Both the position numbers and the translations under genes were made by a program. A stretch of 64,000 nucleotides of DNA. Origin: Patellaria atrata CBS 101060. Its lineage: Eukaryota. Shown here one piece after another: positions 1 to 51,856 of this stretch (positions are counted from its first letter, which is position 1; every line of letters begins with the position of its first letter). The notes below the pieces were generated by a model. That model made no database searches. It saw only the letters and a program-made list of their open reading frames with translations, and was not told the origin of the DNA. The stretch spans positions 287,960 to 351,959 of the forward strand of contig MU006105.1 in assembly GCA_010093705.1 (NCBI GenBank), read 5' to 3'.

Positions 1-2389
1 AGTGAGCTTGTGAGCTCTACAAGGCCATTTCTAGATCAAGTCAGAGTCAGGGGGCACAAAACCCACATCAGGACGAGCATACCGTTTCAATGCTGCTTGA
101 CGCACGCCTTAAAGAAGTCTGCGAATTCCGACCTATTGGGCATGAACTGCAATTGGAACATCCTCGCATCCACTATTTTAGACTCGTACTCATGAAACAG
201 CCTGGTTTGATCTATAGAATTTTGGATGCTTTTCAGCACTTTACTGTAGAAACAACTGGAACTGCAACAGCAACAGCAACTGGTAGACCACCTCATGGTG
301 GTAAGAAAGGAAAATTTGTTTTCAAGGACCGTGGTTTCCGTCAAATCTAGAAAACGAGCATGTGCATATCTGGGAGGAGCTCGTGAGCAAAGAACAACCC
401 TTTTTTTCTACGACCGTTGGAGAGACACGAGATCCGACAACCCAAATAGAACTTTGGGACATGCATTTTGTGATGGCTAAGATACTAATCGAAATTGGAG
501 CTGGCAAGCATTCGATGACATTCCGATGCCTGGTGATGTTCCTCCCCAACCAACAGATTTGCTGAAGATGACACGACTCGCACGACAATCTACATTGCAA
601 ATGGGGAAGGACTACAAGGAGTCATTGAGAAGTTGTTTGAAACTAGTGGATTAGAAACCGTCTTTGGAAAAAATGGAATCTAGGAATTGAATCAGAAAAT
701 TTTTAATGATGTTGTATTGGCACTAACTAAGGGACATGTCAAAAATATCCCACAATTGATCAATGACCTGACGAACAAGCGGGGACGGTGGAGATTGACG
801 TTTTAAGAAGTTGGAGTGTCGATCTTAGTCAGGAGGTCGATGAAATGGGTTCAAGCCTGCTTGATGGTAAATAATATTTTGGCGATAGTACACATGTACA
901 ACCCGTCTTCAAGTAGTTTCGTGAATAATCATTTTTGGCTGTGGGGACTCATAGCGGGACTAGCATTTATAAAGTTATACAATCTGATGACAAGACCCAG
1001 TATAAATTGAAAAAGGCGTGACCCAATATTTGTTCTATTGGAAAACCCGTACGGTGATCTGATCAACCTAGTCTCATCTTACAAGAGGAATGAAAGCATT
1101 AAATGAGCAAAGGGTGACAAACCTACGATTCTCTGGAAACAAACAAGAAACGCCAAAACCAAACCATGACCTAAAAGAAACATTGTCCACTTACCACATA
1201 TCCACGAAACGCTTCCTCTTACTACACCAGCTCCCTATAACCTACTGCAAACCTCCATAGAATGATTGACAAGCAAAAAAAATGACCCTGTTCCCCTTGT
1301 GCGAATTGCTCTTTACCTAGCCAGAGCACAACCCAATGTATGCGTCACTAAGCGAGTGCCGAATTGTGATTGCCTGCTACAACAATGTTGGGGTCATAAC
1401 GATATACTATGGCCGTATACTATTCCCCCGTCCCCCCTTCCCCGAAAAAGCAGCCGCGACAGCTTCTAACCTCCATCTCTGAAAAGGCGTTGACAGCTAT
1501 CGTTCCAACTGAGACCACACGAAGCCAAAATACTCAGAGTAGGGATCGGAAACTCTGATTCAGTAAGTAGTAACTTGACATGGACCACGTTTAACGTAAG
1601 GACACTCTGCTCGGGGGATAATATCGGCCAGGCCCCTGTTTTGAAGGCCCTTGGGATCTAATAGGTTCGCTGGAGAACTACAGGCTATCTGTGAATCCTG
1701 CTTATACGGTTAGCGCAAGGTGGTTCACGTCTTTGATGCCTGAGATCGGGACGCATTTGGATAGACGTTAAGGGGTATAGAGGAATTGCATGTACTGTAC
1801 AGTATTGTATCGCGGAGATAAGAGAAGACCTTATGGTGTAGAAATTGTACAACAAGCTAAGATGTAACGTCGTGAGACTCTGTAACCTGGACTAGGGTTC
1901 AGCTGCCATAGGTACAAAAAGTTGTACATGGGTGAATCTGCAAATCTGTAGCCTGGATCGTTGTCGAAAGGTATTTTTGAGACTCGATGTCATACTGTAA
2001 TCGGATCTCCAAAAGGATAACATCACGAAGGAGCAAAAGCACCGGAAAAATGTCGAGCATTCAAGCTTCGTACAGTAGCGATTCCGGGTAAGAAATCGTA
2101 CACAACGACAACGGGATAAGGCACATCCCAAGGTTCCAAACCAATTCACCCTTTTCGCTTGACGCCAACTCCGTCCATACTCCATGCTTCGCCTGCCGGT
2201 TGAAGAGAAAACAGGTCCAAAAACGAAGGGCAAGAAGATTACACCATCACCGCCAGCTCAAGAAAACGAAATCCCTTATTCCAAATTTCCAAACTCCGAT
2301 AGGATATGCAACGGGTTGCCAACAAGCCGGTCTCTAAGCGCCCAAGCGGTGTGTGGCATCACATCCCATTGGGCGGGTGGCATGCTGGT

Positions 2390-2808
2390 TCATGCCGTGT
2401 AATACGTCTGTGTGGTTGGAGTCTGGTTGGCTTGGGACAGTCGCTGCAAGGCGAGTTCTGCGGCATCCCTAGGAGTGCGTTTTAGTAAGAATTCCATCAT
2501 GGGATACCATATTTGGGTGGAAGTGGCGCCTACTCTTTGGCTTGGTGGACGTGTTCACCATCGTACCAGTATCTGGCAGCAATGTAACCTGCTGAAGTAT
2601 CAGCCCTATGCTGGGGTAGGGCTGAAATCTTGGAGCTTACCTTGCCCTTCGACACAAACACTGCTAGACCAAGCGGTACGGCCACCTGTCTCATACATTA
2701 GTCCTCCGTCTGACTGGTAGTAGGATCATCGATTGGCTATAGATATAGCGGCGGTGGGTTGCCAGCGTGGGGGCTTATGGGGTAGAAGAGTAACGGAAAT
2801 TGGGGGGC

Positions 2809-2839
<31 letters not shown>

Positions 2840-3021
2840 CCTCTTCGATCGGAAACAATGTTGAAGACTGGAGGACGTAACTGAGCAGCTCGGCAGTGAT
2901 CTGTGGGGAAGTAAGCACAGAGGTTGAAGAGCGGTCAAGGCTGAGAAGGAGGTCAGCGCTGACCTTGCAGCCTTCCTTGCCAATAACCAGTAGTCTGGCC
3001 ATTGGTTTGTTGTGAAGCCAT
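2390..3021 (-). CDS. Small stand-alone double-stranded RNA-binding motif (dsRBD/DSRM-like) protein, 98 aa, 5 exons (3021-2964, 2900-2841, 2685-2641, 2588-2534, 2468-2390)
   Basis: Four GT..AG introns splice to an open 297-nt frame: MASQQTNGQTTGYWQGRLQDHCRAAQLRPPVFNIVSDRRGGRTAWSSSVCVEGQGYIAARYWYDGEHVHQAKEDAAELALQRLSQANQTPTTQTYYTA. The pattern W..RLQ.HC......P.F / beta strands / AKEDAAELAL matches the alpha-beta-beta-beta-alpha dsRBD layout. Confidence 0.85.
2802..2836 (+). repeat. G homopolymer (G6-C-G28); poly-C in intron 2 of the dsRBD gene
   Basis: Directly visible; begins 4 nt after the intron-2 donor on the minus strand. Confidence 0.95.
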
Positions 3022-4941
3022 AGTGTATAAGAAAGCTTGGGTGCTGATTTAGGAGAGATAGGTGTGACAGGACGGTTCTTAAGTGATATATCGGTGATGT
3101 CAACCAAGGCCGGGGACGTTGAAGAAAGTGATCAAATTGAGAGAGAACTGCTCGCTGATGACCGTGACGTAAATTGAAAATATCTGGACTCTGGAGAGGA
3201 GAAAAGTCCGTACTTATAGACTAGGAAAAGGGGGAAGCGTCATGCCAGATGGTGTTCAGTTACCCAAACGCGAATCCAAGCGGCAGGCATCCGCAATGAT
3301 CAGGGACGGTGAGTATCATAAAGAACCAGAATCGGAAGGAAAGGATGTGTTGGCAATCTTACCCACGCTACTTTGAGGCGGCTTCTAGAGAGGAAGAGAT
3401 GCAGGTCAGTGAGTTCGCATGGTCCTAGAGACTAGAGAAGTAGAGACTAGAGAATCCCAGGATCCGTCGACGAAGGGTCGGGCCGTCGATGTGTTGGGCA
3501 TGATGACAGAGCAACAAGCCCATCCATCCATTCCATCAAGCCAAACGGACCAGCGCAGCCTAAGCAATATCGCCGACCTGGTGGACTACCTCATATCAAG
3601 TGTCAGCGCTGGCGATGGGTACTCCGCCGCTGTCGTCTGGTAGTTCTAATGTCTGTAAGAGGTGCGCACACCCGCTGCACGATGGCGAGACGGCTCGTCG
3701 ACAGCCTCGTGGTGAGACGCGATTTGAAAAAAGAAAGGACGGAGAATGATGAACTTCAGCAAAGCCGCTGCAATGCCAGCACATTCTGCAAGCTGGCAAC
3801 GCTGGCTACGGGTCTGCAACTCTGCACTGTTAATTTAGGCGTGCTAAGACGCTTCATATGTGTCGTCGATCCTGGGGCAGTCGTTCTAATTTAGCGATAA
3901 TGCAAGTCATTCATAACCGGCTGGCGTGATAGTTTCCAGTAGTAGTGTCGTGTCCGTTTGAGGTGGAGAGAGGTACAGATGTGGGTTGAGGAGGGAGTTT
4001 GACGTGCCTGGAAAGCGGGACAGAGTAGTGTAGAAACAGGTATAGTGGCTAAAAAGGCTGAAGGAACATATAACCAGTTCTGTCTATAATAACTTCGGCT
4101 ATGTTAAACGACACCGCACATTGTATCATTGTATCCTCTTAATTTGAATCCTCGGTGAGCCGGTAACTCCTCATCAATCATCATGCTGCTGTAGAGCTCT
4201 GCAAAAAGCCTGTGAATCGTTATAAAATGCGGTGACAGGACGGGTCCTTGCATCAATGGAGCCGTTTGATATTGATCTGTCCCGCCTTTGCTTCCCCACC
4301 ATGGGACTACCATGGACTGCCATGGCTCCTGGTGCTTTCTCTGGGTCGGTGGTTGACGGGATTATTTGAGCCATATATGCTCCTTATACACAAGCATATC
4401 CGTCCCCTTGCACCGATCAAGGTACATGTGCGACGGTGGCTGGGGATCTTCGTTTCCAAGCATATTCATCATGGCACAAGGCGAATCGCAGACTCTGAAT
4501 TTGATAGTGTGGAATTTCGTAACTCATATATCATAAGAGGGCACCATCTTAAGCCCTATGGAAGTTCCACCGAAACCATGAAACCCATTATCCGTCCTGT
4601 GGAGGACCCATTGCCGCATATGAAACGCCTGTCTAATAATGACAAACCGTGTACCATTTGTTTGCCCTGATAAAGTCTTCGCAATGCTAATAGAGTACCC
4701 ACACACCGTCAGCATCCGATTCTCATCAAGTGCGTGCAATACTATTGGCATCAAACAATCAAAAGTTTGATTACCAAGTGCTAAAGACTCGGCGCACAGC
4801 ATTTCAAGCCGAAAGCCCCTGTCAAGGTCGCAAGGCAAACGTCCCGAGGGGGAAATATCTACGAGAATCGAAAATACTCAGTTGACCCGCAAGAGGCCAA
4901 ACAATCCTGAGCAGAACAAGAAGACTGAAGCATACTGAATC

Positions 4942-6291
4942 TCAAGCCACGGCATTGGATCGAGAACTACGGTGGAAAACGTCATTAAACAGACGTCTAT
5001 GACTGGCATGCTCCACGTTGACTGAGGCATTATTAGAATTGGGGATGCGAGGCTGTGGACCGTGTTTGCTATGGAAGTGACTCCTGATACGGTCATCTAC
5101 CAATGCAATCATGCCAGTCGAGATGATTACGCTGAATTGGTGATGTTAGATGAGCTTCTATGCGATTAAGGGTATCACTCACTCTCCAACGTCAGGTTCC
5201 ACGGCTTCTGTGAACCAAAACGCACTGTTCGGAATCCAGCCTCCTTTCGCTACTTCTTCTCGAACTTCGGCAGGAGTCTTTTGTCTTGGAGCAATGTGTG
5301 CCAGAGCATCATCCTTTCCGCGTTTGTAGAGATGGTAAGAAAAATCTTCTGCACCCTTCTGCGACTTCTTAGTGACGTGCCAAGAGTAATCCGAGCCCCA
5401 ATACTCGAAGTCATAGTGCTTCTGCTTTTTGGTAGTACGCTTGACGACGTCTATGTGAGCATAATTGCTGAATTCAAGTTGAATAGTGTTTGTAAGTCTA
5501 GATTCCAGGTTACCCTTCTTCACGCTATAATCGCTAAAATCACTAAGCATCGATTCGTACCCTGAGTCGCGTCTCTTCAAACCAGAAGAGGTTGAATCAT
5601 TGTTATGTTTCGTGAAAGGTTTTACGAGACTCATGCTGAAAGATTGCCTAGCTTCGAATAGTCGTTGATGTACTGGATTATCTTGCATTCTCACGGAATG
5701 ACATATCTCCCGCCCGGAATCTCGTCCATAACGGCGGAATGAGAACTCTCTTTTAGCCAAATCATGTATCCTAAGGTGGAAGAGCCCTATATCTTGCTTT
5801 CCATATCTTGTCTCCACCGGGACATACAGACTTAGGTTCATGTTACCATCATAGGTAGAGTCGTCATGGCTAATAGTTAAGGTACGGGGCGACGGGAATA
5901 GGTCTGCGAAATCTCTAGGCGTAGCTGGAATAGCTGTAGGTTCCGGAAAGTTATAGTTATGCGTATACTCGTCCTCCACGTCACTTTCGACATCATCCAT
6001 GGAAGACGCGTATGTCTCGAACGATGCTGTAGACGTGTTCCCGTGGTTTGCAGAGGGCATTAGCTTAGAACCTATGGCGGTGTTCGTACATGCACCGTCC
6101 ATTTTGTCGAGTTCAACATTGGGACTTGGTTGACTGTATTCCGTTGGAGCAGTGCTATGAGAGTAATTGGAGCTATGGTCAGCACTGCGAGTAGATTGTG
6201 AGCTTAAGCTTAAGCCATTGCTTTCGCTAGACTGATGTCGAAGGTGAGGCATGATATAAGATTCTTCATATGGAGGAAGAGCTTGTGGCAC
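4942..6291 (-). CDS. Conserved fungal hypothetical protein (start uncertain; intron 5182-5132)
   Basis: 370-aa ORF with motif-like blocks HDDSTYDGNMNL, LFHLRIHDL..REFSFRRYGRDSGREICHS, IQLEFSNYAH. A GTGAGT..CTAAC..CAG intron extends the frame into DVIISTGMIALVDDRIR..., stop at 4944-4942. Confidence 0.8.
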
Positions 6292-9200
6292 GCGTGCAGA
6301 TGTATTTGCTAGTCTGAAGTGGCTCGGTATAAGGGGAAAGGGTTTGTTTACCGGCAGGAGAGGGTCGAGATCATATTATAGTCAGTGACTAAATGTAAAC
6401 AGTGAAGAAGTTTGTGTCCCTGGAGCGAGCGGTGAATTAAATAATTGTGGAGAATCGCATCAGATCCATGAAGTAGATACATGGATCATGGCGTGAACGT
6501 TGCGGAGGATGTAGGTTACCATCTCTAGAAGTGTGGAGTGACTAGGTTGACTTGAAACTGTGGAGAGATGTCGATATAACGAGACGCCAGTAGCGCAACC
6601 TCGTGGGGGTGCTCGTGACAGGGCTAGACTGGACAAGAGACGCACGACTCGCCCAAACGCTCACCCACGCCTACCAGTCAGCCTCCGATTTTTACCCTTT
6701 GCCCCCCTTAGCCTATCCCTTTAGTTCTACTGTAGTATCATACATTATTATTCCTAGTTTCTTACCATCCACGATGATATCCCAACATCCAGTTCCACCG
6801 TCCGATCGAGACTTGAGTTCCTTTCACAGCCACCCAGAGAATAGCCCTCTACCCCTGGGCTCACACTACCCTAACACGCTTACAATTGGGAGGTTCGAAG
6901 CTTTGAGAGTTGAAAGTCTCCCTCTTAAGTTCTATTCTATACTGGGAGCATTTTTTGTCCATGGCTTACAGCCGAAAACTCGAGTGTAACTCTAGATTTA
7001 TTGATATGTACGACAAGATTCATCTTCCTCGACTACCAGACCATACTACCAAAGCAATCGGTGTCTTCTCTCGCTCATCCTAATCTTCATCTACTACAGT
7101 CAACAGCGAGAAGTTACTGCTTTTGCCCGCCGAAACTGATCCGGACCACTGCTTGCAACTTGCCGTTTCGGACGAGTTTTCTCTCCCGTAATTCGTGCGG
7201 ATACTTTGGAAGTAAAAGGGTCCTCCAGATGCTCCACGCTTTATCTATTGCAGGATTGATCAGCGCTCGACTACGGTTCCAAGGGTTCGTCGCAGTTCTC
7301 ACAATATGATAGATGTAGATGGACGTCAGAGCTACCATTCAGGGTTGTTTGATATCCTACTCCAGAGCTCTAAACGTGTAGGACGGGTACATCGTCTTGT
7401 GTTCTACGCGAGTTTGACACTTCCATAGAGTGGCATGTGTAGGTTGACTGGTGGACTTCCAAGACTCACAACTGTGTACTCTGGGAAAATCGAGTAGCGC
7501 ACCAGAAAACACGCCCTTCACCCGCGATTGCCCTGATCTTTCAAAATGTTGTCAAGGATTCAGGTATTGCCAATTGTCTTAGATCTATAGGTCAGTTTTG
7601 CCTCGATAATAAGTCAAAGGACGATTGCAGAAGTTAAAGGCTCTATCATTGGAGTGTTAAGGGGGGCCCGATACTCTGCCTCCCGTCTGCAAACTCTAGA
7701 ACCCGTATCACGAAAGCTACAAGCTTCATAGAGTTTATGATTACTTCTGCCCTATTTCCGGCCGATGGCAAAAGCCCAAGTTAGGAATGAGGGGGAAGGT
7801 CGCGTCGCGGTACCTCCGTACAGGTACAGTACAGTACAGCAAACGCGGTCCATATCTGCAGCCCAGTCGAGTCCAAATGTCTGCAAAGCATTGCAAGCAT
7901 TTCTTCCCAATTCATCACCTTGAATATATTGAGCGGACCATTCAGAACGTTTAGTCCTGTCTGCTTTCAATGCACTCATTGTCGAATTCGAGATTTTCCG
8001 CTGCATCCGTTAAACATCCCGACAATCCCAGCGGGATCCTTGACCCAATGAGAGACCTCCACGCTTTCTGGATGTACACCAACGTTTCTCTTCCACGTTC
8101 ATCGTGCCATGACCACTGATTAAACCCACTGAGCCGCGTCTCATCTATCTTCCCGTCATGCAGGACGTTAAGCTCCACCAGTTCGGCCTACTCGTCCCAG
8201 AAATGCGGACAAGCCGTCCCGTACTCCCCTCTAGCTTCTTCCTTCAGCTCCGTGAATGCTACCAGATCCATCAGCGCAGCAGAATCCTTTGTAGGTCTGC
8301 ATGGAAGAGGTTTCGAAAGCTAAGAAACGTGGGGATCGTGGTCCAGGCTCGACATTGAGCCTGCTCTATCGAAAGACCGTAACCGGACTTTACGCCATCA
8401 TCCCTTCTCTCTGATTGCTCGGAATGAACCAACCATATCTCCTGCCATGATTATGGATTGTCGTAGCTGCACATCTAACTTCTTTCGAACTTACTCGGGC
8501 TTGGAACAAGCGGGGAAGACAGAGTCCTCCAGACTGCTTTCAGAATGCCTTGTGGTACAGTACTACTGTACTCTGTCCAGCAGGAGGTGTAAGGTCGTAA
8601 ACCCACCGCGGCCGATTCAATAGGGATATTTGTCTTCGGGATCAGACTAAACTAGTAATGCTATGACGATAACAGACAGCTTTCTATTTACTTATACAGT
8701 ACAACTATCTTATGATTCGACAGAAGTAATTTTGTCTTCCTTTCCGCGGCTTAATACTGAAGAATATCTCTTTATGCAAAGTTAGGCTGTGGTTAGAAGC
8801 TAAAATGTTAGACAAGCTACCGTAACTAGCATTCGCTAGTGACGATGTCATAACCAGCAAGCTCTTTTCCACGAGCATCGACTTGATTAACCATCCCACT
8901 TGAAAATCTTCAACTATGACAATTTTTCGTCCGTCAATAGGTTATAACTGCATACCTTGCAACACGATGATCTCCCGCCGCTTATCATCCGTCAGGATAC
9001 AATAATAATAATCTTCTGACTAGATTATCGTACTCTCTTCACGCTGTCTTTCAATAAACACGGGCTTTCCCGTGCCAGTTGATTTGGTACATGGGGCTCC
9101 TTCAACTACATGATCAACATTGTGGAGATACTCACAACTTGATGGACGCTGCAAAATGATAGCAACCCGGTGGAGAGCCTAATACTCGTACGAAAACGAT

Positions 9201-9813: not shown

Positions 9814-12800
9814 CTAGAACTCTCTCTCCCACAGCCTCTTCCCCTCAATCACATTCCCCATATGCGTTCTCGCAAATGACTGCCCACGCATGCGGTGCCC
9901 AATCCATCCCTTCAAGAACGGCAGCGGTGAAGAGCTAAACGGCGACTTCTTCCATTCCCGCTTCTTCGGACGGGAGTCTGGCGGCACGAATAATAACGTT
10001 TGAGGATCAATGCCCAAGAAGTATAGCAAGCGCTCGTATTCCGCGCTATCTTTGAGATACAGTGCACCTGCATAGAGCTTCAGCGCGAGGAGAGTATCGA
10101 GCGATACCTCATTACCTTTGGACCAGGCGCCAACGACGAGAACATCTAGGTGGGAGAAATCGACCATCGTCTTTGTTATCTGAGGTGCATATACATGCAG
10201 GCTGATGTATTCTGACGCTCGAATATCTCCCATGAGTTCGTTCGCTTCCCAGGGGCTTATGATGATAACTTGTGATCGCTTTCTTGAAGTCAGCACCCAA
10301 TGTACAGGACGTAGGTAATTATCCGCTTTCTCGCCAGCTCGGGCTATTACTGTTCGCAGAAAGTCCCGAGTAACGAAAAGGTTTGAGCATATGTCCTTGA
10401 ATGTAGAGAGTTTCGAAAATGACGAGACTTTCGTGATCGCTTTGAAAGCTTGGACGACTGTTGTGGCTTCGGTCGGAAGCTTGCCTTTCCTTACGAAATG
10501 CACGATATCATTGCTGACGGCAGGGACCGTAATCGGGCGTTTTGGGGGTCGCTCGGTGTGCTGTTCCCGTTCGACTTCTGGGTCAAGCTCTCGAATTTGC
10601 TCCTCCTCAGTCCGAATATTCCCCAGACCGGATCGGTTTACCAAGGTCCAGCGGTTCCGAAGCTCCTCGATAAACGGCTCTGTATCGTACAACTTGATGG
10701 CTGTTTCGATCTGTTCTGATCGGGTGTCAGAAGCTCCATACAGTTGTTCTAACCCTTTCTCTTCCTGCTCGACTATCTTGCTGCTGTATTCTTCAACAGC
10801 ATTCTGATCACGCACAGCCTCTTGGATTTCCCGCCCGTCTAGAAGCTTTGTGAATTCTATCTCCTTCCTAACGAATTCTACACCTTGAGTCACCCAGAAT
10901 GGTAAGATACGTTCATGTCTATCACAGGTTTCTTGGATACACCATTTGAGAACATGTTCTGATGTGAGATTCTCCCCTTTGCTCGTTTTTTGCAGACCGA
11001 GGCTGATCTCCGGAGACCCAATAAACATGATAGAGTGGCCGAATCCGCCTAACTTACGCATCCTCATGCAAGCTAGATTACATGATTAGTATATAAGTAA
11101 AATATTAGAGCGAGTAGATTATCTTACCTTGTACTAATTTGTCCTTTACAAGGCCTGGACCTAGAGTTACAGCCGCGCGAAACCCATCTGGCATAACCAG
11201 ATCAACACCGCGAGTGTGAACTTCGTCAAAATAGACAAGGCAACTCTCAAGGTTATGCCGATATGGTGATGAAACAAAGCGATACGAGATGTTAAGACGG
11301 TCAATCACCATCAATTCGTCATGCTCATCAAAATAGAGAGCGGCTTCTGCGTCCGGAACAACCTTTAACCATTCTTGAACCACTTCAATATTTTGCATCT
11401 CTAGAACTTGTGCTCCAACGTCGATTAAGGCACAGACATTTGGGCTTTGCTCTGATATAAATTGTAGTAAGTCCGGAACAGATAGTTTTCTTCCTTGTTC
11501 ATCAGCTGCAAGCATATACGTCCGGTTTTCTTCTCGGATGATATAATTCATTACGAGCGCATTTGTATGCAAGTTATCGTCAATATCTTCCTGCTTAATT
11601 GACAGCGGAAGAAGATCTCGAGTATCATTCGTTCCGCTGAAACCCGTAGTGATGTGTCCGTTGGATGGTGCAGGAATATCCCAGCTAGATGCTCCCAGCT
11701 TCTTGTGGAATGTTTTCGCCTCTTTTGGAAAGACAATTTTGTCCATGAAGTAATCACACACCTTTTTGTTATACTTCAAGTGGGGAAAAACGTCTCTGCA
11801 GCACGTGATGTTATCCCCGAGATTGATGCTTCTCAGATTCATGAATCGAGCTGGCAATCCTTGCGCGGACTTCGCCCAAGATGCGTAGACATCCGAACCG
11901 GTCCTCTCCTTCTGGAGCTGCTCAAAACATTGAAAAATTTGAGAGTTCGTTAGTCCATGGTAGTAATAGCTTAAGCAGGTAAGCAGAAGAGCGCAATCTG
12001 GATGCGCAAATTCGCTAGCTATGGAGGGGACTGATTTCGCCCGGTAAGGGACTGCCATTAGACAACGCTTCAAGTCAAGACCATACTCGACAAGCCAGCG
12101 CTTCTTCTGAAGAGCAAAAAGTAGGACTCTGTGTCCGATGAGACCACGAAGAGTGTAAAATACGACTCGCTGTCGAGGGTCGGATCCCACGAGCTGATTG
12201 ATCAGATTTGCATCACCTTCACTTAGGTCCTGACCCTGTATGAACCTGAGAATTGCCTTCTTCGAAGAACTGTCAAAGTTGAAGGAAAAGCACTCAAGTC
12301 TCCCTTGGGCTATGCATTGCAAAAGTCCTTGGAGTATCCTATCACCAATGCTGGCATCTAGAAAACTCAGAGTAGGGAAACATCCCGGCCTTTCATCTAC
12401 TTCTAGACTTCCCGGCTTCTTTTTAACCAGGGAACGAACAACAAAAATAACTTGTGTCAAGATGTCTTGACAGATTGTCCACCGTTCAGCATGACCGTCA
12501 ATGGGTTGCTGCGTTCCCACTGTATAAACCAGCTGGTATCGAGGATCGAGAATCTCGTCGCTTTCGTCCATTACATCACGAGTATTCCTCCGCAGCCATT
12601 CGTCTATTCGAATCAGCTGTCCTCCAAGAGCAGGACGAGTCTGAAGTTTCTCCCTGCCTGACAGGCGGAAGGATAGCATATACTCTGGGAGTGTAACATG
12701 CACTGCTCTCTCTTTAATGCTCTCTCGGTAGAGACATTCTAATCTTGTTAGTAGAGCTGGGCTCACGTCCGATGTCCGCGTAAAGGGTATCGCGAATACC

Positions 12801-15800
12801 CTACGATTGATCAGGCCACCAAGACGTTGCGAGAGGAGTCGATGTGTTTGAGGAAGCAGAGGCTTTAGGGATACGACCCGAGCAAGTTGTTCGCCGTTGG
12901 CAAGAACCGATACCACCATTGGTATGATGACAGACGATTTGCCTTCACCCATGTTGAGCTGGGTCACGAAGTTCGAAGTCTGAAATATCATTTTCTTTGC
13001 AACCAAAACCTGAATGGGACGGATTCTAAAGTCGTTCTCCAGTTCCAAAATCAACCAATCTGGGAACCCCCCGACGTCCCAGTTCCGCGGGCCCATATTC
13101 TCGAGCTCTTTGTTGAACATTACAATGTTAGCTGTTGCGGCAAATCGAACAAGACGCTCTGCCTGCTGTAGATTTGCCAACGCTTCTCCATAACAAATCA
13201 GAGCTGGTTTCCACGCTGGTGGTAGCTTCGATATCTGTGTGGATGCCAATCTAGCCAACAAGGTTTGCGGAGTCAGTTTCGGCCAGATGCCCGCTTCTCG
13301 GAACATGATTGAGGAGTCATTCTCTGGCTCCAGTTTCGCGCGGATTATTTCGAAGACTTCCCAAACATACTTCAAACATGCACCTTGGTAGGATGCAAGC
13401 TGTACTGTGTCAAACGGGAGTTCCGGTGGTAAAAGTGGTCGCTCATGCACCTTCAATGCGTTTAAGCTCTTCTGCAGTTCTTTGCCATAATTTCTGACGG
13501 TGAGATGCTTGTCAGAGATTAATTCCCCCGTGATGTCTTCAAGATCATGAAAGCTATCTTGAGTATCATTCCTCTTCAGGAGAGTGGTGGCCCTCAATCC
13601 GGATGGTGGAGACGGCAGCGATGTTGGATGCGAACTGTTGGAGAGAACTTCCTCTAGAGACGGGGCTGGTAGGTATGGTGCTGAGGGTTCTAGTGTCGGA
13701 GAGGTGATTTGGGGAGGCTGCAGTAGATGTTGAGAATGCGGGCAATTCATCACGGATAATACCCCTTGGATCCTCTGAATACAGTCGACAAATTTATGAT
13801 TTCTATAGATATCAGAAATGTAATTCGTAAGCCATCGCATCGAATTTTCTCTGGGAGTCCACGAGAGACTCATATAAGTCGGTGTCTCGACAATATGCTC
13901 AGTAGGCCATCGGTCCATTAACTGACGAATAAAGGTGTCGATCCCGGCGTTCAGCTGAGGGAGGTCAATTCTTTGCCTCTTCGTTCCCCTAGAGATCGAA
14001 CCAGATCCTTTCAAGATCTCAATGCGTCGTAACTCCGTTTCCATCACATTCCTATCTGGTTCTCTTGGTGCCATGAGGTCAAACGATCCTGATCCCAGTC
14101 GGAGGTCTCCCGAAAATTGGCCTGAGATGGAAATCGCGATAAGTGCGCGCAAGTGTTTCTCAATATGTGGCACACCAAAGGCAATAGTCCCGAACGTAAA
14201 CATCAATTTATATACTCCGTTAGCTGGAGTTGAATGGCGGCAGAGCTCGAACAGTGAGCCCCAATTGCCTGGGAGGCACATTTCGATGAGCTCTACAATC
14301 GAATGTTCTTCGAAGACTGTCCCGAAGCCGGAAACCTTAGTCCAGGTCATCATTGTCTGTAGGAGGTTTGTGTCAACGTTCAACGATTTTGGCCATTCGC
14401 TGATTATATTGCTGATATTGTAGCAACGCTGGGCATCGGGATTAATTCCGGAATCTCTTGACTTATACAATCTGTCCAAGTTTTCCTCATTAGCATCGCT
14501 GGCGGGGAGATTACTTCTAAACCTTCGGTTCTGCGCATGGGCTTTCAGGAGAAGGAGCTCATCTCCCTGATGATTAGGCTGGATTGCATCCACCCGTGAA
14601 GACGTCAGCGTTATGAGATATTCATTGCTCGCGATGATACCCCTGACGGCGAAAACAAACCCTTCATGTTGGTTGAATTTCGGGATGGACTTGTTCCATT
14701 CAACCTTTTCCTGCACAGTCATGTCGCGGGGGTAAAACTCGCGCTTGGGAGTTAATTGAGCTATGAGCTCAAGTATCTTCATCTCCTCACTACCAAGAGG
14801 AGAACAAGGTCTCAAGGAGCTCTCTCCAAGACGCCGTAATGCCTCTTCAACCCCAGTAAGACCAGTAAGCTTATCTGGAAGAGCAGAGCTCGACACAGCA
14901 TGTAGATATATGAGGAATAGTGCTGCAAGTAATTCCGGTGGTGTCTGAAGCTTACACAGATTTGTATCTACCTGGAAGACGAAATAACGCACCTTTAGTG
15001 CATCTTTATTGTGGATGGTCACAAGAGTGTGATCAGATGGCTCCTTGCTAATGGAAGTTTCCACATCGCCATATGGTACAAGGACTAGCGTTTTTCCACC
15101 CTGGTTCCTGTTGTTCGACTCTTGTAGTATGAGCTTGCTTTCAACTCCATGAAGAGTTGGTAGTGTTTGCGAAGAGGCTACAACACTACCATACTCCGGC
15201 GACTCCAATTCTCCATTGGAGTTAATAAAAAAGTTCAGGTCGTACCTGGGGAGTTCAACTTCCAAGCGGCCCTGTGCATTTGTGTACACATTTATCAACT
15301 TCTTTTCTTCAATGTTAGAGAAAATCTCACAGAGATCAGAGGCAATGTCACTTTTAGGATTGAGTAGAATCTTTGTTCCGGAGGTTAAAACATACTTCTC
15401 ATCTTCTAGAGTCAGACTCCATGGTGTATCGTCCCACGGCGACTGCAGTAATCTAAGGTGAATCGTCTTCGTTTCAATATCGATCCAATGGAAGTAGCCT
15501 TTTGTAAAAGACTTCGGCAAATTGTAACTCAACCGCCTATCATCGATAAGTTCCAAGATTTGTGTGCACTTTTCCGCTCTGATGAAGAGTGTGCCGTGAT
15601 CGAGCCCAAAGTGGACTTTATGTCCTTCAATCGGATGTGGATGCATATACTTCATACCTGTCATGTCGGAAGGACAAGCACTTAATTTACTCTTGTGAAA
15701 AAGTCTTCCGACTAGGTGGGAATCTCCATATAGTGTCGGGAGTTGCCCGAACTCTATACCCTCGACGTAGAATTCTCCAGTGAGGAGATGAAAATGAATC

Positions 15801-18800
15801 CGCTGTTTATTGCGGTTAGACATCGATTGGGTGAGGGTTGTGACCCAACCCTTCCTATTGTCGAATGAGACGGGTCTCCAAGGTTCCACAATTGATAACG
15901 AAGGTATAAATCGAGATAACGCTTGAGACATCCCGTCCGAGATAGTATTCTTACAGATAGCGGACTCCAGCTTAGGACTTACAGTGTGACTTATCCTTTG
16001 GGTGCGCGTGGTTATGTGCTCTCCGGAGAGGTGAATGAGGATTGCTGTCTCGATGAAGATAGCAATGGTGGTCTCGTCAGCGAAAACGTCGTCCAAGAAT
16101 TTACCATCCACATCCACTGTGTGCTGACAAAGTGCAGCAGCTTTAAAAAGCATGGTCTGGAATTTGGATTGACTTTCATCCTCACCAATGCGCTTGTATA
16201 GGTCTCTACACCATTCCATAGTTGAGCTGCGCAGATCCCTCAAGTAGTCTAGGGCTAACCGGACAATCTCTTTAGAAGGCGATAGTGACAATGTTCTTAA
16301 ACATATGTCAATAAGGATAGAGATACAGTGATGTTCGCTCCAATTCCCCTCGCTGAGTAGCTTCCTACGAGATACCGCATCTAGAAGAGCATAGCAGAAT
16401 GATGCATCCTCAAACAAGAAATGTGATTCCCTTCTAGCGGAACTCTTGTGTTCTGTCCCAGTCTGCAATGATGCTTGGGTGAAAAGCACAACAACAGGTT
16501 CCGTATATATCAAGTTCGAGCTGGATAGCTCTCGCGCCATATTTAGCCACTGTAGTCGTTCTCCTGAACGCAGTGAGAGAAAAGCGTACTGCAGGTTCAG
16601 ATCCAAATCATGTGGACAAGCACCCTGCTCAGAGATGGCTCTATTCGCCGGTTCCAAAGGCGAGTTTACCGCCCACTGAAATTGCTCAAACGAACCGCTG
16701 GGCAAAGTTAGGGTACACTTGGGCTGAAAGGATAAGTCTTTCTTTTGGCCTGCCACCCATTGCGGTCTGTTTTTGTCCAAGTTCTTAAGATCCAAAAATT
16801 TGTAGTCGGCTCCCAGTGGCCTGATTATACTTTCGACAGACGCGTCTGAGAACTTCTCATATCTCCAATGAGCGACCATAAATGGCTTCTTGGATGTGCC
16901 GAGCGAGATGCGCGTTCTGGCGGAGCTGTTCTCCTGGAATGGCAATTCTCTTTGATTTGATAGTGTCTGTATGCATGGTTCTCCAATGACACTTTCATTC
17001 CTTGCTAGGTCTTGAATCACAAGCCATGTCGAGTTCCGCCAACACACAAAAGTCGTTGGTAAAAGAAGTTCAAAAACAATGAACTTCGCCTTGTGCTCAT
17101 CTGCTGGGAGTGGCTCCTCAAATATGGCTATTTTCATAGACTCGAACTCTCGCCGCTCAACGCACTTCTTGCATTGTTCAGGGACATGCCATGTTGCAGC
17201 CGGACCCAGAAAAGTGTGTTCCCGTCCGTAAGAGCGTGCTCTAATAATCTCGAACTTAGATTGTTTCTGGAAAAACTCTTGGATCTTCTTCTCGCGGTTA
17301 TCATGCGCTTTTTCGAGAATCGACCTCCGAAGCACCTGATGTTCTCTTGATTGATCAAAGTACTGCACTCCAAATGTCCCAGAGGCTGGATCCGCGAAGA
17401 TACAAGGGTTGTGTGGGAGAGCGGAACTCTTGCGCTCCTTCAAGTACGCTTCCACGTTTTGCAATCGCTCCATTTGTGCCAATTTTGGGAGTAACAAATG
17501 CTGAAATAGTTCCACTGGGACCTCGGGCGAAAACTCTAACAGCAAAGGAATACTCTCGGTAGCGATTGTGTCTAGGGCAACCCACAGTTCTGCTATTGTT
17601 AGATATGCGTTCGATAGACTAACGGGGTCGCATTTATAGTGGGCTGTTGCAAATGTTGCGTAATTCTCAAGCATATCTGCCAAGGCTTCAGCTTTATCAA
17701 TGGAGCCAGGAGTGACTGATCTAAGCCATTCGATCATCTTTTTAGCGACCCAATCTTCAAAATCAAACATCTCAATAAGGCTGTGATCTGATTCCGGAAG
17801 TTTTGGTGTGATCCCATCTTCATCATAAATCAGACCAAAGCATTCCTTAGGTTTGAATTCCTTTGTCTCGACTTCTTCTGACTTTCTTGACAACGCTTTC
17901 TTGATCGCGAGAAAATTTGCTCCAAAATGCAGCTTAGTGCAATCCTGGATTCTGCTCTTTTCCCAATCATATTTTGGAATCATCTTAGCTTCCTCTTTAT
18001 CTAATACTTTCTTCCATCTTTCTTCTATAATATTTCGAATGTCTGTGCTAGTCTGCAATAATTTCCTGGAGATGAACTTCATCGGATCCGTAAGTTTAGA
18101 CATTCGTCTAGCTAGCTTAGAGGAAAGTGCTTGTAGCATGTTCGTATTGATATCATTTCTGCACGCTAAAGTTCCAAGGCATCCAAGGAAGTATAACACA
18201 AATTGTTTATACATTGCTCGATGATCTCTTGGATTTTCAATCATTAGACGGCGGTGGATGGCGACTCTTAAGACGAGCCAGAGGGGGGATCGCCGCCATG
18301 GTTTCAGAGCATTCTTCCAGAGTATCTGATCCCTTGTTGCTTTCCGTAGCAGCTCGTACTTTTCCGTAGTGCCTAGTGCTCTCAGCATAGACGTGAGCTG
18401 ATGGGTTACGAGAGTGGGCGCTGACGCTCGGCGGATCTCTGGGAACTCTATTCCAGCTTTACGCGTCGTTCCGGAGAATCGAGTGACACTTTCGTTGTAT
18501 AGGTTTGCTATTCGCTCAACAAAGCAGACGCGAAATTCGGGGTTAGAAAGATGTGAAGCGGGAAATACCGCCCTAGTCCCGGGGAATAAGCGTATAAGTC
18601 GACCCTTGGTTCCGACTACATCTTCTTCCTGTGCTGAGGCCTCGAATGCCTCATAAATCACCAGATCCTCGGTTGTTCTGTGGACGGTCACCCCAGCATT
18701 TTGTGCACGGAGGAAGAGCGCAACAGTTTCTGTTGAATGATTAGGAGTCAGTGCATAGAGAGTGGTGGGTCAAAAGAAGACTGACCTCCAGGATTCATGT

Positions 18801-51802: not shown

Positions 51803-51856
51803 GGGGGGGGGGGGGGGGGTTTGGGGGGGGGGGGCAAAGGGGGGGGGGGGGGGGGG
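51803..51856 (+). repeat. Clustered G homopolymer runs (G-quadruplex-competent)
   Basis: Three G runs of 12 nt or more separated by TTT and CAAA spacers. Confidence 0.9.

Follow-up and report, generated by a model that had tools for sequence, protein, structure and literature searches.

Plants and animals depend on cofactors with a domain for binding double-stranded RNA (a dsRBD) for Dicer function, and the known Dicer partners carry two or three dsRBDs with canonical RNA motifs; dsRBDs of type B are exemplified by the third domains of TRBP and Loqs. In the canonical domain, as passages of PMC11309768 describe it, RNA is contacted at three regions: a Glu in the middle of helix alpha1, a GPxH motif in the beta1–beta2 loop and a KKxAK motif at the N-terminus of alpha2. 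In the hDus2 dsRBD, passages of PMC6451096 place an Arg from the C-terminal portion of this loop in the minor groove and assign tRNA specificity to an N-terminal extension. The relevant portions of two further papers (PMC4817773, PMC12663654) mention dsRBDs solely in ADARs and Dicers. Here, we compare with the closest described systems—the first dsRBD of Arabidopsis HYL1/DRB1, the small Arabidopsis protein DRB7.2 and the hDus2 dsRBD—a five-exon gene of Patellaria atrata CBS 101060, whose 98-amino-acid (aa) product is predicted to fold as one solitary dsRBD. The gene lies in a stretch of 64,000 nucleotides (nt), called the window below (contig MU006105.1 of assembly GCA_010093705.1, positions 287,960 to 351,959 of the forward strand).

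The gene occupies 3021..2390 on the minus strand and was read on the reverse complement of window positions 2200-3250. Its exons (58, 60, 45, 55 and 79 nt, each thus below 80 nt) are separated by introns of 63, 155, 52 and 65 nt, all four bounded by GT..AG and all four with branch-point-like motifs (CTNAC, CTRAT or TACTAA) 10-25 nt before the acceptor. Joined, the exons give a 297-nt reading frame from an ATG at 3021-3019 to a TGA at 2392-2390, with an in-frame stop 10 codons 5' of the ATG. The elements, in order of transcription, are as follows (“invariant,” here and below, refers to 65 aligned members of the family):

Exon 1, 2964..3021, minus strand: 58 nt, residues 1-19 and the first base of codon 20; variable N-terminal tail and start of alpha1 (W14, Q15, L18).
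Intron 1, 2901..2963, minus strand: 63 nt, GT..AG, phase 1, at codon 20.
Exon 2, 2841..2900, minus strand: 60 nt, residues 20-39 and the first base of codon 40; remainder of alpha1 (with invariant C22), P30 and strand beta1, ending S-D-R-R.
Intron 2, 2686..2840, minus strand: 155 nt, GT..AG, phase 1, at codon 40; splits the invariant R-G/G-R loop.
Exon 3, 2641..2685, minus strand: 45 nt, residues 40-54 and the first base of codon 55; strand beta2, with G-R-T-A-W-S invariant.
Intron 3, 2589..2640, minus strand: 52 nt, GT..AG, phase 1, at codon 55.
Exon 4, 2534..2588, minus strand: 55 nt, residues 55-72 and two bases of codon 73; strand beta3 and start of alpha2 (invariant A59, R60, Y63, D64, G65, A71).
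Intron 4, 2469..2533, minus strand: 65 nt, GT..AG, phase 2, at codon 73; TACTAA-like branch site.
Exon 5, 2390..2468, minus strand: 79 nt with the TGA counted, residues 73-98; alpha2 (invariant E73, D74, A75, A76, A79) and a disordered tail.

The spliced product agrees letter for letter with M501DRAFT_1019265, an NCBI hypothetical protein (P0001 in our set) of Patellaria atrata CBS 101060, a Dothideomycete according to taxonomy lookup. The deposited protein was retrieved with a 40-aa frame that includes exon 2; UniRef labels it “DRBM domain-containing protein,” and the ESM Atlas contains a letter-identical 98-aa sequence. With this protein as query, 600 of 600 candidates (53-172 aa) matched at E<=1e-3. 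Because the product is identical to a deposited protein and has these 600 homologues, a chance arrangement of short frames is excluded, and we hold with near certainty that this is a genuine, conserved, protein-coding gene of five exons with the fold and family of a dsRBD. A first-pass annotation, made from the sequence alone, had proposed the same five-exon model, and its coordinates, exon count, exon sizes and 98-aa product were all reproduced. It had also reported that the gene escapes a listing of open reading frames, and indeed the exon-bearing frames in the stop-to-stop list span just 31-65 aa; searched against Pfam, none of the five unspliced exon frames matched (0/5), as expected for pieces of 15-26 residues. 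Its description of the gene as hidden did not hold, as the five-exon model already stands at NCBI and UniRef with the DRBM label; as a gene discovery, then, the locus adds nothing. A 105-aa plus-strand frame at 2403-2720 and other frames above 100 aa across the locus were set aside as antisense or out-of-frame by-products.

The family to which this protein belongs is a large one of small proteins with a single domain. A profile of the 65 aligned members, run against 1.84 billion cluster representatives, retrieved 395 representatives (50% identity) at E<=1e-3, of which 280 reach E<=1e-10 and 24 reach E<=1e-30, counts that indicate a bounded family and not a spill-over into thousands of ordinary dsRBD proteins. 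Organism names were available for about 90 of the 120 matches listed, and each record so named comes from a filamentous ascomycete and is described as hypothetical or DRBM. The named genera, all of which we take to be Pezizomycotina, are Aspergillus, Penicillium, Talaromyces, Coccidioides, Histoplasma, Botrytis, Sclerotinia, Fusarium and, likewise by our assumption, Colletotrichum, Trichoderma, Verticillium and many lichen-forming fungi; Drechslerella, the source of one longer match, is presumably an orbiliomycete. The named records thus agree with the earlier statement that this motif occurs in uncharacterised Pezizomycotina proteins. Ten clusters that were opened carried only the names “hypothetical,” “uncharacterized” or “DRBM/dsRNA-binding,” and a search of the full-text literature that included orthologue locus tags, with subscription journals and supplementary tables outside its scope, returned no functional study of the family. 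One fungal “DRBM” paper (PMC12604049) was discarded, as it concerns ribosomal protein S5 and not this family. Twenty-two alignment columns are invariant across the 65 members, and the window's product keeps all 22. Many members of Leotiomycete or Sordariomycete type end in Trp, often as ...G-W, after a Ser/Pro-rich tail, as seen in the alignment and in metagenome loci L005, L006 and L013-L032; the C-terminus of the window's protein is unlike this ending.

Intron positions were compared in 80 related loci from metagenome collections (L001-L080). At the codon-20 position of intron 1, a phase-1 AG acceptor without a contiguous upstream exon occurs in 66/80 loci (one of them at the locus edge); the remainder comprise nine contiguous loci, two contiguous loci with a variant motif and three without the motif. 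Intron 2 recurs at an identical position and phase in 60/80 loci (59 GT-AG, one GC-AG), with 16 of the others uninterrupted and four lacking the motif pair. Eleven loci (L001-L007, L009, L026, L039 and L056) are short contigs of about 1.0-1.7 kilobases (kb) that hold a full Met-to-stop protein and neither intron, and from their appearance we infer that they are spliced transcripts. Introns 3 and 4 are absent from 75/80 loci, where the corresponding stretch is a single open frame. By this comparison, introns 1 and 2 are ancient positions, and introns 3 and 4 appear to be lineage-specific additions, the 297-nt coding sequence having apparently gained both in the Patellaria lineage. The evidence that these two are real introns lies in the invariant residues that their removal restores in register, namely A59, R60, Y63-D64-G65, A71 and E73-D74-A75-A76. 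Five loci (L010-L012, L015 and L040, on contigs of 1.8 to 483 kb) keep intron 1 but not intron 2, a pattern suggestive of the precise loss, in some lineage, of the otherwise conserved R-G/G-R intron; L033, on a 1.1-kb contig, likewise keeps the first and lacks the second.

The conserved intron positions and the uninterrupted contigs give strong indirect support to expression and splicing of the gene in this form. Two null results stand on the other side. Among the 80 loci there is no pair of genomic and cDNA contigs from one species, which weakens the transcript reading of the 11 uninterrupted contigs: when 12 short contigs (these 11 and L033) were compared by blastn with the remaining 68 loci, a single match of 59 nt reached >=85% identity. 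A sequencing-run search at the locus listed no RNA run for Patellaria atrata, and the two runs that cover it (one sample, one study) consist of DNA-type contigs, up to 14 kb long, with introns present and no joints. Expression and the four junctions therefore rest on homology and the deposited model.

Two local features of these introns are recorded here in their own right. The acceptor of intron 3 (2589-2594, minus strand) is a tandem CAG/CAG, and use of its upstream AG would add one residue to the beta2–beta3 loop, where the gene's product already has one more than most relatives do. Wholly within intron 2 lies a homopolymer-like G6-C-G28 tract (2802-2836, plus strand; poly-C in the sense pre-mRNA), whose end is 4 nt away from this intron's 5' splice site; in both DNA runs the contigs are broken across the tract, at 2794-2845, and its length is given as assembled only. 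Other G runs, of 17, 12 and 18 nt, are found at window positions 51803-51856.

The predicted structure agrees with the sequence family. An AlphaFold2 model built on the 65-sequence alignment has a mean predicted local distance difference test score (pLDDT) of 76.7, with values of 84-90 per ten-residue block over residues 11-80 and below 50 at residues 1-9 and 89-98. Its elements (helix 13-24, strands 31-39, 42-51 and 55-58, helix 65-86) follow the alpha-beta-beta-beta-alpha order, which places the modelled product within the dsRBD fold (alpha1-beta1-beta2-beta3-alpha2), in which both helices pack against the same side of an antiparallel sheet of three strands. Searched with Foldseek against the PDB, the model matched dsRBDs in 11 of 11 cases at E<=1e-3, led by HYL1 dsRBD1 (3adg; E=4.4e-5, template-modelling (TM) score 0.82 by target, root-mean-square deviation 2.3 A over 72 columns) and followed by DRB2, DRB7.2, E. 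coli RNase III, DRB3, DRB4, the hDus2 dsRBD (5oc5, 6f00, 4wft and 5oc6) and DCL4 dsRBD2. Structural look-alikes in the Atlas are plant DRB1, SON and RNase III. By sequence, too, HYL1 dsRBD1 is the best solved relative (single protein, E=2.7e-4; profile, E=1.6e-5). The fold that the first-pass annotation had proposed, and had suggested checking with AlphaFold and Foldseek, was thus supported, and no other topology emerged to overturn it.

The domain stands alone across the family. Most of the best 150 representatives are 60-170 aa long with one matched stretch, and among the 15 longest representatives Pfam found no family in 12, a sub-threshold dsRBD only in two and, in one, a marginal GAGA match with no passing stretch. 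Seven of 48 longer homologues do join the dsRBD domain to other, unrelated Pfam domains (P0325, P0326, P0327, P0331, P0337, P0342 and P0346), each to a different one and each in a cluster of one to three sequences. Among these partners are zinc fingers, ribosomal uS7, queuine tRNA-ribosyltransferase, HECT and transposase-type domains (some of the names are our own presumed reading of accession numbers, others are source labels), and the seven fusions probably arose where adjacent gene models were merged in those assemblies. Among the 48, a partner of helicase, deaminase or kinase type was never seen, and no partner domain recurred. The earlier claim of a solo domain without an enzymatic partner is therefore borne out, both by the family norm of 60-170 aa and by the longer forms.

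What distinguishes the family is the surface on which a dsRBD would be expected to meet RNA. At the first of the three canonical regions, the acidic residue of alpha1 is present: D20 in the window's protein, aligned to the HYL1 Glu, with E in 30 and D in 28 of the 65 members. At the second and third regions, the surface is conserved in another form. Invariant residues cluster in the beta1–beta2 hairpin, where the 11-residue stretch from S36 to S46, which contains the RGGR motif, is invariant or nearly so, and in the beta3–alpha2 turn and helix start (Y63-D64-G65, A71, E73-D74-A75-A76). Arginines or lysines at R38, R39, R42, R60 and K/R72 are invariant or near-invariant, and the last KKxAK position is basic in all 65 members (K in 54, R in 11). 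The coincidence of the conserved clusters with the canonical RNA-contact regions, together with the Arg-rich character of this face, favours RNA binding through a rebuilt surface, and the minor-groove contact made by the loop Arg of hDus2 indicates that an Arg-based loop can read RNA. On balance, we regard RNA binding through this remodelled face as somewhat probable.

A series of observations weighs against this reading. A lone dsRBD usually binds dsRNA weakly. Here, the GPxH motif of the second region is missing, its place being taken in 65/65 members by R39-G40-G41-R42 with no Pro or His, and the KKxAK motif of the third reads (V/I/L)-(N/H)-N-A-(K/R), so that its first two lysines are replaced by V/I/L and N/H. 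The retained K/R is directly followed by the invariant acidic pair E73-D74, and the core is close to neutral in its net charge (median +1, from -2 to +6 across the 65 members). Pfam scores for the window's protein fall below the gathering cut-offs both for PF00035 dsrm (16.0 vs 23 bits) and for PF14709 DND1_DSRM (17.5 vs 25.7 bits); at E<=0.1, sub-threshold matches to dsrm occur in 28/65 members (best 2.2e-4) and to DND1_DSRM in 55/65 (best 9.6e-5). Taken as a check on the original proposal, the PF00035 comparison upholds a dsRBD-like domain and not a canonical one: the protein is below the Pfam cut-offs, without GPxH and without two of the three KKxAK lysines. With a sub-threshold score and these motifs lost, dsRNA binding is not a given. 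The lost motifs, the acidic pair and the near-neutral charge resemble what is found in type-B dsRBDs that do not bind RNA.

This resemblance defines the alternative that survives best, namely that the dsRBD fold is kept here without RNA binding, as a protein–protein module whose RGGR, YDG and AKEDAA surface clamps a conserved partner. The losses of GPxH and of two KKxAK lysines, the invariant E73-D74, the median core charge of +1 and the sub-threshold Pfam scores are all in its favour, as are the type-B domains and dsRBD protein platforms described in passages of PMC11309768 and PMC6451096 and the occurrence of DRB7.2 and DCL4 dsRBD2 in protein complexes among the fold matches (8igd, 9k9p). 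Type-B domains, however, are conserved only C-terminally (as stated in part of PMC11309768), whereas in this family the N-terminal two thirds, including the beta1–beta2 loop, are the most conserved. In addition, R38, R39, R42, R60 and K/R72 suit phosphate and groove contacts, and the closest relative by both sequence and fold, HYL1 dsRBD1, has been crystallised with dsRNA (3adi). We consider a protein–protein module possible, on the unlikely side, and retain RNA binding as the preferred reading.

Under the RNA-binding reading, the protein would dock on base-paired RNA via the usual dsRBD face (alpha1, the beta1–beta2 loop and the N-terminus of alpha2), rebuilt such that an Arg-Gly-Gly-Arg hairpin would stand in for GPxH and N-N-A-(K/R)-E-D for KKxAK. 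As this face is invariant and yet non-canonical, one particular conserved RNA or RNA–protein target would be expected, and not any dsRNA. Lacking a catalytic domain, the protein would act for an RNA-processing machine supplied in trans, either as a small adaptor or as an accessory subunit; specifically, a constitutive small adaptor might hand its bound target to an enzyme supplied separately. None of the three roles suggested at first pass (RNAi cofactor, mycovirus sensor, splicing regulator) is favoured by the evidence here, and we place low confidence in any specific pathway for the family. The boldest form of the idea, that the solo dsRBD is a missing trans RNA-recognition subunit of a core fungal RNA pathway in which the RGGR hairpin reads the substrate, strikes us as improbable; were it to hold, the most attractive pathway candidate may be a double-stranded RNA-binding protein (dsRBP) partner of Dicer-like enzymes, or alternatively a detachable module with which a modification enzyme docks on tRNA or rRNA.

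The first of these candidates would make the protein a one-domain Dicer-partner dsRBP of filamentous ascomycetes, comparable to HYL1/DRB4, Loqs/R2D2, TRBP and RDE-4 and acting in quelling, meiotic silencing or antiviral RNA interference (RNAi). Its best sequence and fold matches are to the plant Dicer partners HYL1, DRB2, DRB3, DRB4 and DRB7.2, and the slot appears empty, as our literature search found no fungal Dicer-partner dsRBP; more speculatively, the G-W ends of many members resemble Argonaute-binding GW motifs. Yet the tandem arrangement of two or three dsRBDs is lacking, the 98-aa protein having one domain, and known partners carry the canonical RNA motifs where this family is without GPxH and KKxAK. 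RNAi accessory factors tend toward fast evolution, and an 11-residue near-invariant stretch across several fungal classes would be unusual for them. We therefore judge a Dicer-partner role doubtful.

A further candidate is a structure-specific binder of stable RNA (tRNA, rRNA or snRNA) that would serve a modification or processing enzyme in trans, in the manner of animal Dus2, whose extended dsRBD brings tRNA to the catalytic domain. In the profile search of the PDB, HYL1 is followed by five hDus2 dsRBD sequences (E=0.071-0.19), a non-canonical loop with Arg reads RNA in hDus2 (PMC6451096), hDus2 is among the fold matches as well, and the housekeeping-like conservation fits a conserved RNA target. 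On the other hand, these hDus2 sequence matches fall short of significance, the stretch preceding alpha1 is variable with predicted disorder (residues 1-9, pLDDT <50), and no fusion to a modification enzyme recurs, the sole queuine tRNA-ribosyltransferase fusion (a one-member cluster) looking like a merged model; we think this role quite unlikely. Finally, a non-functional locus of chance short frames or a decaying pseudogene, to which the lack of RNA runs for Patellaria atrata, the very short exons and the interruption by a 35-nt G-rich tract might point, is effectively refuted by an intact product with all 22 invariant positions, canonical splice sites throughout, identity to a deposited gene model with hundreds of homologues and the confinement of the G tract to intron 2.

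The surroundings of the gene offer little context. For about 2 kb to each side there is no long open frame. Upstream, the nearest large frame (398 aa, 5179-6375, minus strand) has a Ser-rich first half and no Pfam match at E<=1e-3; farther on, a 2554-aa frame (11105-18769, minus strand) carries DUF6606, DUF3638 and DUF3645 (E=3e-56, 5e-77 and 5e-14), and a 423-aa frame without a Pfam match (9814-11085, minus strand) may be a downstream exon of that gene. Neither the 398-aa frame nor the DUF6606/DUF3638/DUF3645 protein suggests a functional link to the dsRBD gene.

Ordinary as a gene, the locus is modestly interesting for what remains once its annotation is granted: a family that is widely conserved but uncharacterised, and whose RNA-binding face is remodelled. 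The gene serves as a pointer to this small, strongly conserved family, which is found in well-studied genera such as Aspergillus, Penicillium, Trichoderma, Botrytis and Fusarium. If a Dicer-cofactor role, or a new mode of RNA reading by a dsRBD, proved true, fungal RNA biology would profit; if the protein is a housekeeping adaptor, one more hypothetical protein has been given a fold.

Relative to the canonical type-A dsRBD (PF00035), W45 replaces the conserved Phe of beta2, and the A-A-x-x-A-L pattern of alpha2 is kept. Among viral proteins of similar size with a single dsRBD, the Moumouvirus DRBM protein H2EFX2 (100 aa) is a generic fold match (E=4.4e-5) and poxvirus E3-type proteins show a generic likeness of fold; a viral fold library yielded nothing beyond generic dsRBD matches, whose 10-24% identity points to no specific relation, and no mycovirus protein stood out among them. 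The hDus2 dsRBD (4wft, 5oc6) shares C-R in alpha1, P-V-(F/Y) in beta1 and (F/W)-S-S-x-V-T-V in beta2, and likewise has a non-canonical beta1–beta2 loop that uses Arg (passages of PMC6451096). It differs in being a catalytic fusion with a shorter loop, in keeping K419/K420 and in requiring an ordered N-terminal extension (same passages); the window's protein is not an extended dsRBD of this type, as its N-terminus is variable and predicted to be disordered and Pfam finds no Dus domain.

HYL1 dsRBD1 (2l2n, 3adg, 3adi) has the same topology and the same beta1–beta2 loop length, and the acidic alpha1 residue and the A-A-x-x-A-L core of alpha2 are common to both, at an identity of about 25%. However, HYL1 has two dsRBDs and works with DCL1, whereas the fungal protein has one domain; G-P-S-H in HYL1 aligns where the fungal family has R-R-G-G, and R-K at the helix start gives way in the family to a turn three residues longer that reads N-N-A-K. 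DRB7.2 (8z49, 8igd) differs more in sequence (E=0.4, not significant; 18% identity), and, for this plant protein, there is no evidence of orthology. It is nevertheless, like the fungal protein, a small single-dsRBD protein, which ranks fifth (TM 0.70 by either length, 97 columns) and tenth among the fold matches, and, as DRB7.2 acts via its protein partner DRB4, it provides a precedent for a one-domain dsRBD adaptor.

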